From an uncultured Gammaproteobacteria bacterium (GTDB taxonomy: Bacteria > Cyanobacteriota > Vampirovibrionia > LMEP-6097), in the NCBI GenBank assembly GCA_964438425.1, contig CAYTKM010000001.1, positions 590,603-654,602 of the forward strand: a stretch of 64,000 nt of DNA, read 5' to 3'. A program made the translations under genes and the position numbers. Each line of letters opens with the position of its first letter. Position 1 is the stretch's first letter. Under the pieces are notes generated by a model. It was not told the origin of the DNA, ran no database searches, and was given only the letters and a program-made list of their open reading frames with translations. Below are positions 9,826 through 53,514 of the stretch, piece by piece.

Positions 9826-10548
9826 ATGAATTTTGTAGTGAAAACTATTTTGTCTTTTAAGATTAATTCGATAGATGACTACTTCGGTAGTATTTCTGAC
9901 TTTTATTTTAATATAAAAAATGGTCATATTGAATATATAGTTTTAAGTACAGCTTCACTACTACCTGGTAAAAAAGTGCTTTTAAAGCCAGCTAAAGTAG
10001 CAGGTTTAGACTTTGTAGATAGAGCCCTTAAAGTAGATTTAATTAAAAATCAAATCGAAGATTTACCTAATTTAGAAAAGCATCTAGATGTAAGCTCGCA
10101 AAGTAATGGAACTTTACCTTTAAGTCCTACAGGGGCTTTAGGTGAAGAGCAGCAAGCTAAGCTTAAGTCTGAAATTGCTACTGATAAAAATGCAATCTTG
10201 TTTTCGGTTAATTCTATTTTGAACTATAGTTTAGAGACTGTTGATAAAAATACCACTGGACATGTAGTAGATTTGATTTTAGATACAGAAAACTGGCGTA
10301 TTTCAGATCTGATAGTTACTACACATGACTGGCTTCCTGGTAAAAAAATAAAAATTTCATATGATCATGTACATCAGATTGATATAAATGCTAAGCATGT
10401 TGTATTTGATATTGATAGAAAAACCTTAGTGAAATTAGCTGAATTTGACGAATTTAGTCCAGTCAATAAGCAAGTTAAAGTTGAGTATATGGATTACCAC
10501 GGTCGCGTTCAATGTCATGATCACATGGTCGCTACTGAAACTAGCTAA
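9826..10548 (+). CDS. Tandem PRC-barrel domain protein
   Basis: Two units: FGSISDFYFN..NGHIEYIVLST.SLLPGKKVLL and TGHVVDLILDTENWRISDLIVTTHDWLPGKKI. Confidence 0.8.
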   Translation: MNFVVKTILSFKINSIDDYFGSISDFYFNIKNGHIEYIVLSTASLLPGKKVLLKPAKVAGLDFVDRALKVDLIKNQIEDLPNLEKHLDVSSQSNGTLPLSPTGALGEEQQAKLKSEIATDKNAILFSVNSILNYSLETVDKNTTGHVVDLILDTENWRISDLIVTTHDWLPGKKIKISYDHVHQIDINAKHVVFDIDRKTLVKLAEFDEFSPVNKQVKVEYMDYHGRVQCHDHMVATETS

Positions 10549-10657
10549 ATTTGACGAATTTAGTCCAGTCAATAAGCAAGTTAAAGTTGAGTATATGGAT
10601 GACCATGGTCGCGTTCAATGTCATGATCACATGGTCGCTACTTAAACTAGCTAAATT
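10431..10657. repeat. 106-bp tandem duplication (about 2.1 copies) of the PRC-barrel gene 3' end
   Basis: AATTTGACGAATTTAGTCCAG... starts at 10442 and 10548; junction word (G/T)AAA(T/C)TAGCT(G/A)AATT at 10431, 10537, 10643. Confidence 0.95.
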
Positions 10658-10690: not shown

Positions 10691-10799
10691 TTTAAAATAT
10701 TTTTATAAATTTGGTAATAATTTATAAAAATCGTATAGATTCCACTATTATTTAGAAGAAAATTCTAAAAATTAACGTTTTTTATAAAAAAATTCTAAG
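10691..10799. repeat. 30-bp-period array of 19-bp palindromes (4 units)
   Basis: 10691 TTTAAAA-tattt-TTATAAA; 10721 TTTATAA-aaatc-GTATAGA; 10751 TTTAGAA-gaaaa-TTCTAAA; 10781 TTTATAA-aaaaa-TTCTAAG. Confidence 0.8.
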
Positions 10800-10904: not shown

Positions 10905-11447
10905 TTAGCCACCATACTGTGAGCTTGATTCATACTTTAGACTTGGAGGTAGGTTAAGCACTTTGTCACGGTAAGTGATCGAGATTTGATCTACGATATC
11001 TTTAATACTAAGCATAAAGCGCGGTGAACCGTTACGTGTGATCGGGATATGACGGTAAGAACCATCAGACATGCGATTTAAGGCAAAGGCGATCGGATCG
11101 TTTTCGTCAAGTGTCTTAGGATTTTTAGTCATAAAATCTTTAATTTTAGCTTGCTTGGTATCTAGTTCGGTTCTGAGCATGACTCTTCTTAAAATATCTC
11201 TTTCAGTGAAAATGCCACAGATTTTTTTGTTTTCATCCTGAATCGTGATACAGCCTTTGTTTTGTTCAGCCATAAACTGCATAGCTTCAAATAGACTAGC
11301 ATCAGCATCTATAAAATGAATATAATCAAGATTTAAAGTTTTAATCGGGTCATGGATGTTGATCGCAGCTGAAAGTGGCAATTCTTGCTCGCCGCTGTTA
11401 AGCTCTTCCATAATTTTTAATTCTTCATCAATGTAATCTGAAACCAT
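10905..11447 (-). CDS. Stand-alone CBS-pair (Bateman domain) protein
   Basis: GIFTERDILRRV, IKDFMTKNPKTL, ALNRMSDGSYRHIPI, LSIKDIV. Confidence 0.9.
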   Translation of the reverse strand: MVSDYIDEELKIMEELNSGEQELPLSAAINIHDPIKTLNLDYIHFIDADASLFEAMQFMAEQNKGCITIQDENKKICGIFTERDILRRVMLRTELDTKQAKIKDFMTKNPKTLDENDPIAFALNRMSDGSYRHIPITRNGSPRFMLSIKDIVDQISITYRDKVLNLPPSLKYESSSQYGG

Positions 11448-17059: not shown

Positions 17060-20000
17060 TTATGAATTAAAATCATTTAACTGTTGTATTAATACTCTAA
17101 CTTCAAAGCTTTTATTTATATCATCAATAGTTATTTTACTAGTCAAGTTTCTATTTAGATTTGTCATGGTTTGCAGCTGACTATCATTGTTAGGTTCATC
17201 AGTACGTACTAATAAATCAGCATTTAGTCTAAGTAGTGCCTGCATACTAGCTTTAGCGACCTCTGTTTTATCAAAAGAGCATTGGTCAAGTTTACCTAAA
17301 ATCTCTATACCTTCATTTACTGCTTTAAACATTTCAGACTTTACCATGCTTGAATCTGGCAAATTTATGATAGTGGTACTGCTAGCATCGTTATCTTTGC
17401 CTGTAACTGAAACTCTTAATTTACTAGTAAGCTCACCTTTCATGTTTGAATTCATACCTATTGAGCCTGAGTTTATGTTTAATTTATTCAAATCACTCAA
17501 AAACCTTAGCTTGTTTAAAATTAGTAAAGTGTCTTTAGCTAACTTAGTATTACTGTCAGCTAAAGTGTCTTTAGCTAACTTAGTATTACTGTCAGCTGGC
17601 ATAGAATCAATTTTTTCGATCTGTTTCTTACGTTGTCCATTTACATTAATAATATCTAAAGTCGGTGTTAATTCAGATATCTGCTTTTTGTATTCTAGTA
17701 TCTTGGCTTCACGGCTTAAGGACTGATCAGCAAGAGTTAGAATATTTGAATCATTAATATATGAAATACTGCTATCTATAGCTAACTTTAGTTTACTTGT
17801 TAGTAGATCAAGTTCAGTTGATTTAGGTAATGACTCGCTAGTATCTTTTATGAAACTTTGTATAGTACTACGCTCATCTTTACTAATGATTCTGTTTGAT
17901 ATACCTAGTTTAGTTAACTCTTCAAACTTGCCTAATAACTTAGTTAAGTTAATCATAGCTCTGATCTTTTTCTTTTCTGAAGTGTTTGATAGGTCTACAT
18001 TGTTATTGAGATCTTGTTCTATATTTGATATTAAATCTTTAAAGTCTAAGTCTGTAGGTGGATACATATTTGTACCCTTGAATTGATTTAATGTTTTTAA
18101 AGCTGGGTCACTATTTATATTAGCTTCATAACTTTCAAGTATTTTATGCTCTAAAGTTAACTTTTGAGTAGTTGAAGCATCTACCTTGTTTAAAATATCT
18201 ACATTTTTAGAATTACTAAGTATATTATTTTGGATACCTAAAATTACATCGTAAGCTTTAGTAATTAAATCTGAATCTTCAGCTGTTAACTGTTCATGAT
18301 CTAAACCTTTAAATAGTAGATTTAACTTTTCAAGAGCTTGATCTGGGTTTGATGCTAAAGCTGGTGATAGCGAACTTGTATTACTTGTTAAAGCCTGATC
18401 TAAGTCTTTAATAAGTGATGCGGCATAATATTTATTAAATATACTGTGAGTAGCTTTTAGATTATCACTAATTAAATTATCAGTGGCATCAATATTATTT
18501 TTAGCTCGATAGTCGTTAAGTTCTGTTAAAACAGTAACACCAGCTTTATCTTCTAGCTGCTGGTTTATAACAGCGTCATCAATTGCTGTAATTTCATCTT
18601 CAGTAACATCAGTGTCTGTGCTTGCAAGTATAATGCTTCTAATCGCTAAAGGTTTGTTTTCGATGTTAAGAGATTTATGGTAAACCTGAGTTTTAAAATA
18701 TAATAACTTATCTTCGACTTCATTTTTTAGCTCAGAGTCTGCAAGCTCACTTACTTTGTTTTTCAAAAAACTTACATCTTCTTGAGCATTTAGTAAAACT
18801 CTAGTTTTAATAAGTTGATCAAGATTGTCTGAACTAACGAGTGCTAAATTAGTCTGATTAATCACTTTCAAAGATTTCTGAACTTCTCTAACTAAATTGT
18901 TTTGATTGGTTGCATTGATCTGCTTTAATGGTGTTGATGGTAGTGCCACCTCACTTTTTATTTCATTACTTTCTTTAATACTATTAGCTGTAACCTTGTT
19001 TCTAGTGATGGTAACTTCTGGATAATTTGCAGTTGAACCTGAAACTTTGTTATACCTCGTAATATCTACTTTTTCTCCATTTATTTTCGCTTTGCCATCT
19101 TCAAGGCGTATATATGGAGCTTTCAAAGACTTACTTTGGAAACTTTTAATATCAAGCTCTTCATCAGCAAGGCTCTTTGATTCAGTATTCCCAGCACTTT
19201 TAGCAAATCCATCAAAAGATTCCTGAATTTTTAATAAAGTGTGAGCGTTAAAGTTAACTTCTGGTACATTAATACTTTTTTTCGCTTTATTTACTATTGA
19301 TAGTACTTTAGGTAGGCTATCTAATGTTTTAAGTAAGTGGTTATCATTTGACTGGAGGGTTTCGGATAAAAAGAGGCGCTCACTATGAGTGAGATTAACT
19401 TCATTTACATTGCCTTCTGATTGGATTTTTAATATATTTTCTCCAAAAGCTTTCATTAAATTATTGTATTGAGGAATTTTTAATTTATCTGAGTAAACTT
19501 TTGAGTTTTTAGGTACTTGATCATCACTGATACCTAGATTGCTAATCAAAGATATATTGTGAATAATTTGAGGGATTTTTTTTATATCTTGGCTATTTAA
19601 AGGGGTTTCAATATTTTCTTTATTTGCGGTGCTTTGATGTTGCATTGTTGGCTGAATTATATCTAAACCATCTTTAAGAGTTTTTTGTAATATGATTCTC
19701 TCGACTAAATTTTTATATTCAGGTTTCTGAATATTATCGAAATCACTAATATCTTCAAGTATTATACGAACGCGCTCTTGTTTTTGGTGATCCGTAAAAC
19801 TAAACTCTAATGGCTTTGCATTTGCTGAATCCTGTTTATCGAGTTTATTTACTAAAAGTCTGCGAGCAGCTACTTGTAAGCTTTTGTCAGTAGATAAAAG
19901 CTTATCCCATAAATTGTTTTCAGTATTTTCAATTCTATTTTGAACTTGATCTAAATTACCTTGCAAAGTTACAATTTGATTTAGTTTTTTGTTTAATATT

Positions 20001-20407
20001 GTAAGTTTATTTTTAGTTTGAGTAGAACCTGACTCTAAACTATTAGCTATATCTGTTAAATCTTTTTTAACAGCTTCGATGATTTTAGGAACACTTCTAT
20101 CGTTCCTACTATTTAAAATACTCAATGCACTCGGCTCAGCATTTAAAATAACTTTAGCTTTACTAAATACTTTGGCTGTTAGCTCTGAAAGTGGTGCGTC
20201 CTTACTAATCTTTTCACGATTAAAACTAATAGTCATAGCAGTATTTCGGTTAGCTTCTTTATTCTGGTTTGTTTCCTGATTATTTATTTTCTGCCTGATA
20301 TCATTGAACTGCTCATAATCAGCGTTACTAGTTCTTGAAGTTGAACCTTTAACCGTGTGTTGGTTTGAACTAGAGTATTTTTTAAAATTTAGTAACTTAA
20401 CTTCCAT
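17060..20407 (-). CDS. Large N/K/S/L-rich hypothetical protein, paralog of 13012..16836
   Basis: 1115-aa ORF; blocks ENNLWDKLL, RIILQKTLKD, KKIPQIIHNISLISNLG, YNNLMKAFG. Confidence 0.8.
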   Translation of the reverse strand: MEVKLLNFKKYSSSNQHTVKGSTSRTSNADYEQFNDIRQKINNQETNQNKEANRNTAMTISFNREKISKDAPLSELTAKVFSKAKVILNAEPSALSILNSRNDRSVPKIIEAVKKDLTDIANSLESGSTQTKNKLTILNKKLNQIVTLQGNLDQVQNRIENTENNLWDKLLSTDKSLQVAARRLLVNKLDKQDSANAKPLEFSFTDHQKQERVRIILEDISDFDNIQKPEYKNLVERIILQKTLKDGLDIIQPTMQHQSTANKENIETPLNSQDIKKIPQIIHNISLISNLGISDDQVPKNSKVYSDKLKIPQYNNLMKAFGENILKIQSEGNVNEVNLTHSERLFLSETLQSNDNHLLKTLDSLPKVLSIVNKAKKSINVPEVNFNAHTLLKIQESFDGFAKSAGNTESKSLADEELDIKSFQSKSLKAPYIRLEDGKAKINGEKVDITRYNKVSGSTANYPEVTITRNKVTANSIKESNEIKSEVALPSTPLKQINATNQNNLVREVQKSLKVINQTNLALVSSDNLDQLIKTRVLLNAQEDVSFLKNKVSELADSELKNEVEDKLLYFKTQVYHKSLNIENKPLAIRSIILASTDTDVTEDEITAIDDAVINQQLEDKAGVTVLTELNDYRAKNNIDATDNLISDNLKATHSIFNKYYAASLIKDLDQALTSNTSSLSPALASNPDQALEKLNLLFKGLDHEQLTAEDSDLITKAYDVILGIQNNILSNSKNVDILNKVDASTTQKLTLEHKILESYEANINSDPALKTLNQFKGTNMYPPTDLDFKDLISNIEQDLNNNVDLSNTSEKKKIRAMINLTKLLGKFEELTKLGISNRIISKDERSTIQSFIKDTSESLPKSTELDLLTSKLKLAIDSSISYINDSNILTLADQSLSREAKILEYKKQISELTPTLDIINVNGQRKKQIEKIDSMPADSNTKLAKDTLADSNTKLAKDTLLILNKLRFLSDLNKLNINSGSIGMNSNMKGELTSKLRVSVTGKDNDASSTTIINLPDSSMVKSEMFKAVNEGIEILGKLDQCSFDKTEVAKASMQALLRLNADLLVRTDEPNNDSQLQTMTNLNRNLTSKITIDDINKSFEVRVLIQQLNDFNS
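17525..17597. repeat. Perfect in-frame 36-bp tandem duplication (ADSNTKLAKDTL x2)
   Basis: TAAAGTGTCTTTAGCTAACTTAGTATTACTGTCAGC at 17525 and 17561. Confidence 0.95.
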
Positions 20408-25370: not shown

Positions 25371-25479
25371 TTTAGAAAATCTTTATAAAACAGCGTAAAA
25401 TTTAGAAAAATATTATAAAAATCGGTGAAATTTAGAATTATTTTCTAAAAGTGAGCGAAATTTGGAAAATTTTTCTAAG
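25371..25479. repeat. 30-bp-period array of 19-bp palindromes (4 units)
   Basis: 25371 TTTAGAA-aatct-TTATAAA; 25401 TTTAGAA-aaata-TTATAAA; 25431 TTTAGAA-ttatt-TTCTAAA; 25461 TTTGGAA-aattt-TTCTAAG. Confidence 0.9.
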
Positions 25480-25646
25480 TATGTTTAAGTTGAAAATTTT
25501 TAAACATAATCAATATTTTTGTTTAGGTTGATAGTTTTTAGATTTTCAAGTACAAAACGCTATGGATTTTGGAATTGAATAATATTACCCATAGACATAC
25601 AAAGATGCTTAAGTAACAAGTTTGACCTCGCTGCCTAGAAGATTTA

Positions 25647-50906: not shown

Positions 50907-51015
50907 CTTCTATGAAATTTTCTAAAAAAGCCTAAAATCTGTAATTTTATTCTAAATTAGGCGCTAAATTATAAAATAATTCTAACTTTGGCATGAATTT
51001 AGAATTATTTTATAA
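50907..51015. repeat. 30-bp-period array of 19-bp palindromes (4 units, left arms of the first two degenerate)
   Basis: Right arms TTCTAAA 50919, TTCTAAA 50949, TTCTAAC 50979, TTATAAT 51009; full units at 50967 ATTATAA-aataa-TTCTAAC and 50997 TTTAGAA-ttatt-TTATAAT. Confidence 0.8.
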
Positions 51016-51254
51016 TTTATGTTTTTTTGCAAAGCTATTAAATGTGTGAACTTATAAACACTTTAGGTAAGCAGCACAGCGAGTTAAATAAAATATTTGA
51101 CTCTTAGCGCATCCTTAATCTTTAATTCATAATAAATCTAAGGATAAAACTTACTTAGGTATATAAAGTGCACTTGATAGTTCAAGCTGAGCACTTATCA
51201 TTAAAGTATCAACTTTTATGAAAGCCACATAAAAAGTAGGTTAAAATTAAAACT

Positions 51255-51521
51255 ATGAAAAAATCAATAATCTTAGTATCAGGTGTCTTAGCTTTAGGTT
51301 TGGTAATGTTCGGACCATTAAAAGCTGATGAAGTGAATTCATTAGATAGTATTACCGAAACTGTAGAAACTGAAACTACGCATAAGACTAGTCATCGTGA
51401 TGGTCATGACATGCACGAACATTCAGTAGAAACTAAGCATAAGCATAGTGTGAAAACTCATGAAGCCGATATGGCTGCTGACGTAGATGTTGAAGCTGAT
51501 GTCGATTTAGAAGACGAGTAA
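51255..51521 (+). CDS. Small secreted His-rich / acidic protein
   Basis: Signal peptide MKKSIILVSGVLALGLVMFGPLKA; THKTSHRDGHDMHEHSVETKHKHSVKTHE; acidic tail. Confidence 0.7.
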   Translation: MKKSIILVSGVLALGLVMFGPLKADEVNSLDSITETVETETTHKTSHRDGHDMHEHSVETKHKHSVKTHEADMAADVDVEADVDLEDE

Positions 51522-51576
51522 ACTTCTTAGCTAGCACTAAATTAAAAAAGCAGATAAGCTGTAATTAGATTATAAA

Positions 51577-53514
51577 ATGTATCTAGCTCCGCTTATATTT
51601 GCAATCGTCTATTATTTAGCAGCGCCAATTACTTTAAGCTATGTAAGTGGTCACGCGCTAGCACTATTAGTTAGTCTAACTCAGCTACATAAACTAAGCT
51701 CTAAATTAGTATTTTGGTTAGTATTTATTTTTACTAATCTTTTTTCAGCGCACTCTAGACTTAGTTTAGAGTACTTATTAATTATAAGTTCGATGCTGAT
51801 GATAGCTGATTCTAAATCATGGCTAAAGCTAAAATTTACTAAACAAATCACTGTATTGATTCTGTGTTTTAGTGCATTGTGGCTAGCAGATAATCTGAGG
51901 CATGTATATTATGAAAGAGGTAGCCTGGTAGTATGGTTACCTCTTTTTTTGGCTCTGTATTTAAATCAACCACTTTTTAAAGCTAAAGTGAGCGATCAGC
52001 AGGTTGCTGCTAATCAAGCTGACGCTAAAAATGAAACGGTTTTGCAAAAATGGTCTTTGTTTAAGATAGGAGAAGGATTTTTTAAAAGCGCTGCGAAGTT
52101 TTTACCTCAATTTAGACATATAATAAATTTTATTGCTGCTATTTTAAGTGTCATTAATAACAAAAAAACCACTTTAATCGCTTTTGGCGCTCATTTATAC
52201 TTAAATTATAAAAATAAATTTATAACTGGACTATTATTAATAAGCTTGCCAGCAGCTTTTTTCGTTAAAGATAGTTTAGCTAGATTCTGGAAAGTGTCGA
52301 TGGAAGCCAGGTTATATGTGTATCAAGCGGTTTTTAACGGTATTTTAGCTAAACCTTTAACTGGACACGGCTTTGGTACTTTTACTCTTGACTTTCCTAA
52401 ATATCGTTTGCATGCAGGGGCGTTTGGCACGCATGCTAGCGAGCAAGTCGGGCACGCGCATAATTTATGGTTGCATTTTGCTTTTGAGCTGGGAATGCTA
52501 GGGCTGGTATTAATGCTTGCTTTAAGTTATCTAGTATTCAAGCTTGAAAAAAAAGCCTTAGTACCTTTTTTAGTTATTACGCTGTTTGATATGCCACTTT
52601 CAGGCTTTAATCACTACGCTTTACTTGGCTTGATCCTAGCGCCTTTAATTTACCAAAAACTTTATTTAGCTGCTGGTTTAGGTGAAAATAGTGATGTTGC
52701 TAATTTAAAAAGTGAATCTGACTTCCGTGATGTGAAAGTAGCGGCTGATAGCAGTTATAGTGCTAATTTGAAAAGTGAGGCTAGCTTTAATACTTCTCAG
52801 AAATTAGCTAGTGATAGTAATAGCAGTGAGCTTAATAATAAAGTTTATATTAGAAACACTGTGGGTGTTACCGAAAAACAGCTATCAAGTACAGCAAATA
52901 GAGACCCAATTTTAAAATACTTATTTTATGATATTAGTCACTGGGGCTGGCATTTAAGATTTGCTTTAAAACTTAGTTTATATATAATCGCACTTTATAT
53001 TTTTATACCAAGTTTAATTGGGCACTTTTATTATGATGCTGGCAAGTTAAATCAGGCTTTAAGGTGGGATAGCCAGCAACCTTTATATTATTTTGCGCGC
53101 GCCTCGCGCGATCTTGAAAGTGCGCCGGCGCGCGCGCTAACAGATTTAAGGCATGCGGTAAAGCTGGCACCGAGCGTGCCTTATTTTCATGGTTTTTTAG
53201 CTGCGGCTGAACTTAAGGCTGGTACATTAATAGCAGCAGCTAGGCACAGTAAACTTGCCTTGAAACTAGGAGGACGTGATAGCTACTGGCTTTTACTTCA
53301 TGGTATTAGTCTGCAAGCTTTAGATAAAAAATCTCAAGCTGACTTTTATTTGAAAAAAGCTTTTAAAAAAGATATTCACCTAAAAGATGTACTAGCTAAC
53401 CCTAAGCTCGGTTCATATAAATTTATCGGCTCTAAAAAAGCTGATCCACGTATAGCAAGCTTTTACCGTCAGGGAGATAAAGTTTATCTGCCACTGCCGT
53501 ATATAGAACACTAA
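51577..53514 (+). CDS. O-antigen ligase (Wzy_C)-like membrane protein with C-terminal TPR
   Basis: Multi-TM; RLYVYQ...KPLTGHGFGTF...HAHNLWLHFAFELGMLGL; TPR-like tail (ALTDLRHAVKLAPSVPYFH). Confidence 0.75.
   Translation: MYLAPLIFAIVYYLAAPITLSYVSGHALALLVSLTQLHKLSSKLVFWLVFIFTNLFSAHSRLSLEYLLIISSMLMIADSKSWLKLKFTKQITVLILCFSALWLADNLRHVYYERGSLVVWLPLFLALYLNQPLFKAKVSDQQVAANQADAKNETVLQKWSLFKIGEGFFKSAAKFLPQFRHIINFIAAILSVINNKKTTLIAFGAHLYLNYKNKFITGLLLISLPAAFFVKDSLARFWKVSMEARLYVYQAVFNGILAKPLTGHGFGTFTLDFPKYRLHAGAFGTHASEQVGHAHNLWLHFAFELGMLGLVLMLALSYLVFKLEKKALVPFLVITLFDMPLSGFNHYALLGLILAPLIYQKLYLAAGLGENSDVANLKSESDFRDVKVAADSSYSANLKSEASFNTSQKLASDSNSSELNNKVYIRNTVGVTEKQLSSTANRDPILKYLFYDISHWGWHLRFALKLSLYIIALYIFIPSLIGHFYYDAGKLNQALRWDSQQPLYYFARASRDLESAPARALTDLRHAVKLAPSVPYFHGFLAAAELKAGTLIAAARHSKLALKLGGRDSYWLLLHGISLQALDKKSQADFYLKKAFKKDIHLKDVLANPKLGSYKFIGSKKADPRIASFYRQGDKVYLPLPYIEH

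Follow-up and report, generated by a model that had tools for sequence, protein, structure and literature searches.

Exactly phased intergenic dyad arrays in an uncultured relative of cyanobacteria resemble Lrp/AsnC operator clusters

Results

Four intergenic arrays are built from one dyad at a constant interval

The window, the whole 64,000-nucleotide stretch of DNA that was analysed, carries four intergenic arrays, at 10691, 25371, 43097 and 50908, each composed of three or four units of the 19-bp dyad TTTAGAAAAWTTTTCTAAA with an 11-bp linker. The unit-to-unit interval is exactly 30 bp in 11 of 11 cases, all four arrays included, and the constant spacing put forward in the initial annotation thus holds without exception. 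The cleanest of the arrays, array B (25371..25479), comprises four units at 25371, 25401, 25431 and 25461, with PWM scores of 20.7-23.8. Its sequence and unit positions were recovered as first described by re-reading, by a pattern scan and by TRF (period 30, 3.7 copies). Array B lies downstream of smpB, whose stop codon is 168 bp away, and upstream of fabG, whose ATG is 51 bp away, all on the minus strand; fabG is followed there by acpP and hemL (fabG-acpP-hemL). Array A (10691..10799), with four 19-bp units at 10691, 10721, 10751 and 10781 (PWM 17.0-20.9), sits where a PRC-barrel gene (9826-10548, plus strand) and a CBS-domain gene (10905-11447, minus strand) converge with their 3' ends, a position that supports the earlier proposal of gene-independent sites.

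Array C (43097..43175) has three units, at 43097, 43127 and 43157 (PWM 18.9-23.1). Its final unit borders directly on the mfd stop codon (gene at 43176-46730, minus strand), and the array is located 382 bp upstream of a gene encoding a 1007-aa protein (39691-42714, minus strand). Array D (50908..51016), with units at 50908, 50938, 50968 and 50998, is found 201 bp downstream of a gene for a 308-aa membrane protein; an 88-aa ORF, which is expressed, begins 238 bp beyond it. The three arrays that had been reported in addition to array B are all present, but the last one begins at 50908 and not at 50907, and its first unit is degenerate, with a PWM score of 4.5 versus 17-24 for all other units. 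In addition to the arrays, an isolated single site, GTTAGAAAAATTTTATAAA (42751-42769; PWM 18.0), precedes the start codon (ATG) of the expressed 1007-aa gene by 37 bp. This placement, where the promoter of the 1007-aa gene is expected, is typical of an operator overlapping a core promoter.

Arrays occur about every 16 kb in the window. Each of the four is intergenic and adjoins at least one gene 3' end, and none is located in a divergent gap; with n = 4, this placement is not significant. Three of the four lie 51-382 bp upstream of co-directional genes, two of which are present in RNA contigs. The neighbouring genes (smpB/fabG, mfd/1007-aa gene, PRC-barrel/CBS, membrane proteins) have no common function, and none belongs to amino-acid metabolism.

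Two other repeats were observed next to the arrays. A different A/T palindrome, ATGTTTAA-N11-TTAAACAT, occupies positions 25481-25507, adjacent to array B and facing smpB. The other is a 106-bp tandem repeat just upstream of array A (10430-10657; 2.2 copies with 95% matches). It repeats the terminal ~35 codons of the PRC-barrel gene (KLAEFDEFSPVNKQVKVEYMD.HGRVQCHDHMVAT), and DNA contigs from the source runs break at this repeat.

The phased design exceeds chance expectation and is not an assembly artefact

The pattern TTTAKAA-N5-TTMTAAA, with at most one mismatch, was found 15 times in the window, versus 0.80 expected and a maximum of four in 100 shuffles, and PWM scores of 17 or more were reached only by the arrays and by the site at 42751. 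Within the 8.4 kb of intergenic DNA, nine PWM pairs were detected at a lag of 30 and five at a lag of 60, compared to none in 500 dinucleotide-preserving shuffles, a test that is partly circular in that the PWM was built from the same units. As an independent check, a motif-blind detector searching for two similar 7-N5-7 dyads returned 12 matches at period 30 and no more than three at any other period between 18 and 45. Shuffling of the kind proposed in the initial annotation does not reproduce 30-bp-phased pairs.

Three independent assemblies of sister samples contain array B without a single letter changed, and Logan contigs from two DNA runs span it unchanged, indicating that it is not an artefact of assembly. 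The sequencing runs that contain the window come from a microbial mat. SmpB and a second protein of the window are found letter for letter on contigs of the JGI metagenomes 3300040787-98, and the second protein is present in Logan assemblies as well.

Half-sites and phase are constrained, whereas linkers and flanks are not

Within the units, the half-sites TTTAGAA and TTCTAAA are near-invariant (TTTA.AA / TT.TAAA) and the N5 centre is A/T. Identity between 19-mers is 0.30 for random sequences but 0.68 for units of the same array and 0.70 for units of different arrays. Since units are as similar between as within arrays, they are neither recent tandem copies nor copies of one mobile sequence. 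The linkers are less alike, with identities of 0.46 within and 0.36 between arrays. In the flanks, shared words do not exceed 11 bp, which is at the chance level, and occur at inconsistent positions. TAGCTAA-like flank words were considered as a feature of the arrays and rejected, this word being common throughout the genome.

The sole variable mirror pair of the dyad is 5/15, with G or T at position 5 and C or A at position 15. It is complementary in 5 of 15 units, compared to 6.8 expected if both positions were independent. Given this lack of covariation, a hairpin is not what is kept, and the half-sites drift independently, as expected for a dimer reading double-stranded DNA. Unit orientation is not preferred either, with a mean identity of 12.9/19 for direct and 13.6/19 for reverse-complement comparisons, as expected for a symmetric dimer site. 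Taken together, the independence of the half-sites, the likeness of units across arrays and the lack of conservation of linkers and flanks argue that selection acts on double-stranded half-sites and on phase, and not on an RNA fold or on a mobile element. The initial proposal that half-site identity and phasing are conserved, rather than the repeat as a whole, is therefore upheld.

One pair of units has a particular structure. Units 3 and 4 of array D (50968-51016) are each poor palindromes (10/19) and are near-perfect reverse complements of one another (18/19), forming a 49-bp inverted repeat centred on the linker, with an RNA fold of -24.7 kcal/mol. This inverted repeat may reflect a local inverted duplication or quasi-palindrome correction.

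The 30-bp repeat follows the helical turn and is predicted to be curved

The G+C of the 30-bp repeat is concentrated at positions 5, 15 and 23-27, that is, once per helical turn, and the strongest Fourier term of the repeat is 10 bp. The A/T tracts of the arrays are thus phased with the helical repeat, as in intrinsically curved A-tract DNA. In a wedge model, the output of which is used as a ranking only, the arrays fall within the top 0.02-0.5% of the 110-bp segments of the window: array A is in the top 0.5%, array B in the top 0.09%, and no 110-bp segment is more curved than array C. The predicted ratio of end-to-end distance to contour length is 0.58-0.79 for the arrays versus a median of 0.96.

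The units match the Lrp box and their arrangement resembles Lrp/AsnC operator clusters

The central 15 bp of the units were compared with the Escherichia coli Lrp consensus yAGhAwATTwTdCTr, as quoted in PMC5554404. The units match at 11-15 of the 15 positions (mean 13.0), and the single site at 42751 at 13 or more, compared to an average of 7.3 for the other intergenic 15-mers of the window, 0.76% of which reach 12. Proteins of the Lrp family bind clusters of imperfect sites located on one face of the DNA, with centre-to-centre distances of two or three helical turns, and wrap ~100 bp around three interacting dimers or an octamer (PMC2995911), and the operators of BarR comprise four to five regularly spaced sites (PMC10201364). 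The arrays share with Lrp/AsnC clusters, such as those of E. coli Lrp and BarR and the three-box operator of Sulfolobus Ss-LrpB, a 15-bp A/T-rich dyad whose G and C are separated by 10 bp, and the grouping of several imperfect boxes (three to five in these systems, three or four here) on the same face of the helix at intervals of two or three turns. The number of boxes per array also fits the three to four dimers of Lrp-type oligomers, and the length of the arrays is comparable to the ~100 bp wrapped by three dimers or an octamer in these systems; the DNA may be wrapped here as well. The initial annotation took the arrays for a candidate undescribed system and missed that the motif fits the published Lrp box and that phased clusters of imperfect boxes are known for this family.

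The arrays also differ from Lrp/AsnC clusters in several respects. Naturally occurring Lrp sites do not show the regularity of the arrays, in which 11 of 11 intervals measure exactly 30 bp, and the arrays combine this exact phase with strong predicted pre-curvature in a stereotyped module found about every 16 kb. In addition, Lrp/AsnC operators often control the regulator's own gene or genes of amino-acid metabolism, whereas the arrays adjoin unrelated genes outside amino-acid metabolism, and array A, located between convergent gene ends, has no promoter to control; both the excess regularity and this genomic setting count against the Lrp reading. Moreover, the Lrp consensus is A/T-rich and degenerate, and hence convergence could account for the fit of an A/T-rich dyad whose G and C are separated by 10 bp.

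We searched for a protein that could bind the arrays. A tblastn search with E. coli Lrp, run on the window, the 10 kb that follow its end and the corresponding loci of relatives, returned no Lrp-like gene, and no AsnC-type protein was identified by Pfam among 28 scanned ORFs of the window. The same three sets of sequence yielded no other candidate binder. Our claim is therefore limited to the arrays being candidate counterparts of Lrp operator clusters that may work like them. Several other families were set aside, namely CRISPR, iterons, the parS, matS, SlmA and Noc sites, and the Fur, ArgR, CodY, NrdR and ComK boxes, the sequence or spacing of which presumably does not fit.

Some units may touch promoters

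A promoter-like site, TTGGCA-17-TATAAT (50988..51016, plus strand), was identified by its consensus match alone (11/12) in array D. Its -35 element lies in the last linker and its -10 element coincides with the right half-site of unit 4. The site is directed at the 88-aa ORF, which is expressed; RNA contigs there begin at 51154-51249 and do not reach the start site itself. This promoter-like site and the placement of the site at 42751 suggest that some units may touch promoters. The 88-aa ORF itself (51255-51521, plus strand) is below the usual size cut-offs; its product has a signal peptide and a tail rich in His, Asp and Glu (MKKSIILVSGVLALGLVMFGPLKA...). Each of the three metatranscriptome runs has RNA contigs over 51154-51919, and the ORF is apparently co-expressed with the start of a Wzy_C-domain gene.

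The RNA contigs, from three runs of the same sample, also cover acpP, a ferritin-like gene, the small ORF that follows it, the PRC-barrel, CBS and thiolase genes, and the 1007-aa gene, at which they reach position 42700. None of the four arrays is covered in these low-depth runs, in which contigs show presence and not absence, and this speaks only weakly against an abundant RNA role. Single strands of the arrays fold better than shuffles (z -1.6 to -5.2), as any palindrome array would. The arrays have no Rfam match and no terminator-like site made of a G+C stem with a T-run.

The arrays are multiple in the source population and were not found in relatives

The host is an uncultured relative of cyanobacteria. 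Its nearest Mfd homologues, 69-71% identical, come from MAGs labelled Caenarcaniphilales or Melainabacteria, and no Mfd between 69% and 100% identity was found among 5.8 billion proteins, indicating that the lineage is isolated. Two-unit stretches with at least 80% similarity occur on 11 further contigs of the source metagenome, and on several of them the overhanging letters reveal one or more further units in the 30-bp register. For the six of these contigs with a stated depth, the values are 4.7-10.6x (five at 8.8-10.6x), close to the 9.3x of the contig of the window.

In four relatives whose Mfd is 58-71% identical (loci L176-L180, ~80 kb around mfd), neither an array nor phased dyads of any motif were detected, where about five arrays would be expected at the density of the window. 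As the relatives have no orthologous arrays, conservation over evolutionary time cannot be claimed. No array was found in the 10 kb beyond the end of the window either. A strict two-unit pattern had no match in 185,579 reference genomes, and a relaxed pattern had 58 matches in JGI metagenome contigs, almost all of which were TTATAA-type simple or tandem repeats, with no multi-unit array of this design; the contig collection scanned evidently does not include the source samples. In viral contigs, a fixed-gap pattern gave no match; matches to a variable-gap pattern were rejected, consisting only of A/T-rich giant-virus repeats with 11-bp multiples.

Three of the loci from relatives (L178-L180; CAZKFA01, CAYQSL01 and CAZFCF01) belong to MAGs labelled 'uncultured Gammaproteobacteria'. 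Their Mfd proteins are 58-61% identical to the Melainabacteria-type Mfd of the window, and the loci contain 34-39% G+C; these labels look wrong.

Discussion

We infer that the arrays are bound by a protein, and the reading offered at the outset, cooperative binding of a dimeric protein on one face of the DNA, is still the best one. The best explanation in specific terms, which we judge about equally likely to hold or to fail, is that the arrays are pre-bent docking platforms that seat three or four dimers of an Lrp/AsnC-like oligomer; within it, the assignment to the Lrp family is less certain than protein binding in general. According to this model, each array would be a pre-bent double-stranded platform of ~80-110 bp with three or four dyad-symmetric boxes. 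The key G and C of the half-sites are 10 bp apart, so the half-sites would occupy successive major grooves; adjacent boxes are separated by exactly three helical turns, so all of them would lie on one face of the helix; and A/T tracts and G/C alternate at 10 bp, so the DNA is predicted to be curved towards the face that bears the boxes. One helix-turn-helix dimer would bind each box, and the dimers would be part of, or assemble into, one oligomer, with four dimers giving the kind of octamer known from Lrp/AsnC (feast/famine) proteins. The DNA would wrap around this oligomer, yielding a particle at the borders between transcription units. Near a promoter, as at fabG, the 88-aa ORF and the single site of the 1007-aa gene, such a particle may occlude or stimulate transcription depending on its position. 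Where there is no promoter, for instance between convergent genes, it may act as an architectural element or as a roadblock. An ideal seat for an Lrp-type oligomer would thus look like these arrays, with three or four boxes phased at 30 bp and pre-bent DNA.

A dispersed and partly non-regulatory set of sites has a precedent, since an estimated 400-500 Lrp octamers are bound in E. coli, many of them at sites without regulatory effect, and no sequence determinants were found there that explain the action of Lrp at its targets (bioRxiv 10.1101/276808). E. coli Lrp behaves in this respect as a nucleoid-associated protein, with hundreds of dispersed octamer places in ChIP-seq ('NAP-type' or poised sites), many without evident effect. 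By contrast with those degenerate and irregular sites, for which no sequence rule was found, the sites described here are near-ideal and regularly phased. An extended version of the model, which we put forward as doubtful, would make the arrays sequence-encoded positioning modules for a chromatin-like particle, each ~110-bp pre-curved tract carrying exactly one octamer-type wrapper, about every 16 kb at transcription-unit borders. The particles would insulate transcription units and organise the nucleoid, and the system would be recent in one Caenarcaniphilales-like lineage.

Other readings account for part of these observations. The curvature itself could be the function: a structural, UP-element-like tract with no dedicated sequence-specific protein might draw the alpha-CTD of RNA polymerase or nucleoid proteins, or fix the tips of supercoil loops. 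The strong predicted curvature and the 10-bp alternation of A/T and G/C agree with this explanation, as does an apparent resemblance of the unit core AAAAATTTTCTAAA to the UP-element consensus, AAAWWTWTTTTnnnAAA; co-directional genes also begin 51-382 bp downstream of three of the four arrays, and two of these genes are present in RNA contigs. We nevertheless consider it unlikely, as curvature needs neither near-invariant half-sites with a specific G and C, nor dyad symmetry, nor a 30-bp super-period, and as one array lies between convergent gene ends and a good isolated single site is present at 42751. Ordinary operators of a single regulon, on which a local factor, not necessarily of the Lrp type, would act through phased multiple operators like ArgR, NrdR or BarR, would fit array B, 51 bp before the fabG start, the site at 42751, where a core promoter is expected, and the overlap of the last unit of array D with the 11/12 promoter-like site. 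The functionally unrelated neighbours, the array between convergent 3' ends and a density of about one array per 16 kb in the window, far above the need of one regulon, render this reading quite improbable.

Two further explanations draw on the palindromes and on the proximity of gene ends. Extragenic repeats that behave selfishly or semi-selfishly, like REP/BIME or MITE elements, would produce many copies in one lineage and none in relatives; a transposase whose gene lies elsewhere would have dispersed them, and their presence at gene ends would be tolerated. The arrays resemble REP/BIME elements in being extragenic clusters of palindromic units at a fixed distance, each adjoining at least one gene 3' end; neighbouring units also pair into long hairpins (z -1.6 to -5.2), and one unit pair is a near-perfect inverted duplicate (18/19). 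Unlike such elements, the arrays display no compensatory change in their stems (5 of 15 units versus 6.8 expected), no alternating orientation and no conserved linker types; units no more alike within than between arrays give no sign of recent copying, and neither RAYT nor any Y1 or other transposase was detected by Pfam in the window. As for MITE or transposon ends, the arrays have no conserved flanks, no TIRs, no target-site duplication and no conserved full-length copies, and four DNA runs contained no presence/absence or unit-number variants, although contigs can hide rare ones. We therefore hold a selfish origin improbable and do not retain the earlier suggestion of relic mobile-element ends. 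RNA-level elements, that is, transcribed hairpin arrays serving as terminators, mRNA stabilisers or small RNA, would benefit from the better-than-shuffled folding (z down to -5.2) and from the location of arrays after gene 3' ends. This explanation appears very unlikely to us: the stems are 7 bp long, almost pure A-U and without covariation, there is neither a terminator with a G+C stem and T-run nor an Rfam match, and metatranscriptome contigs that cover neighbouring genes miss all four arrays, a weak argument in that contigs do not show absence.

If a protein of the proposed Lrp/AsnC-like type wraps these modules, they would provide a clean natural example of sequence alone positioning an oligomeric bacterial DNA-wrapper, combining, in contrast to E. 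coli Lrp, exact phase, near-ideal boxes and built-in curvature. A 110-bp array would then be a ready substrate for the structure of a whole Lrp-type nucleoprotein particle, and arrays located between convergent genes would offer a test for architectural or roadblock roles beyond promoter control. The occurrence of the family in one lineage, and its absence from the nearest sampled relatives, shows how fast a genome-wide set of sites can arise.

Additional repeats in the window

Two repeats located away from the arrays were also recorded. The 8-bp palindrome TTAGCTAA occurs at 18 places in the window (e.g., 626, 8109, 25348 and 49763), versus ~2-3 predicted by base composition; most copies are inside genes, and the excess may correspond to a codon effect (Leu-Ala-Lys). 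A perfect tandem repeat of two 36-bp copies (17525-17597) lies within a 1115-aa ORF (17060-20407, minus strand) for which no Pfam match is recorded.
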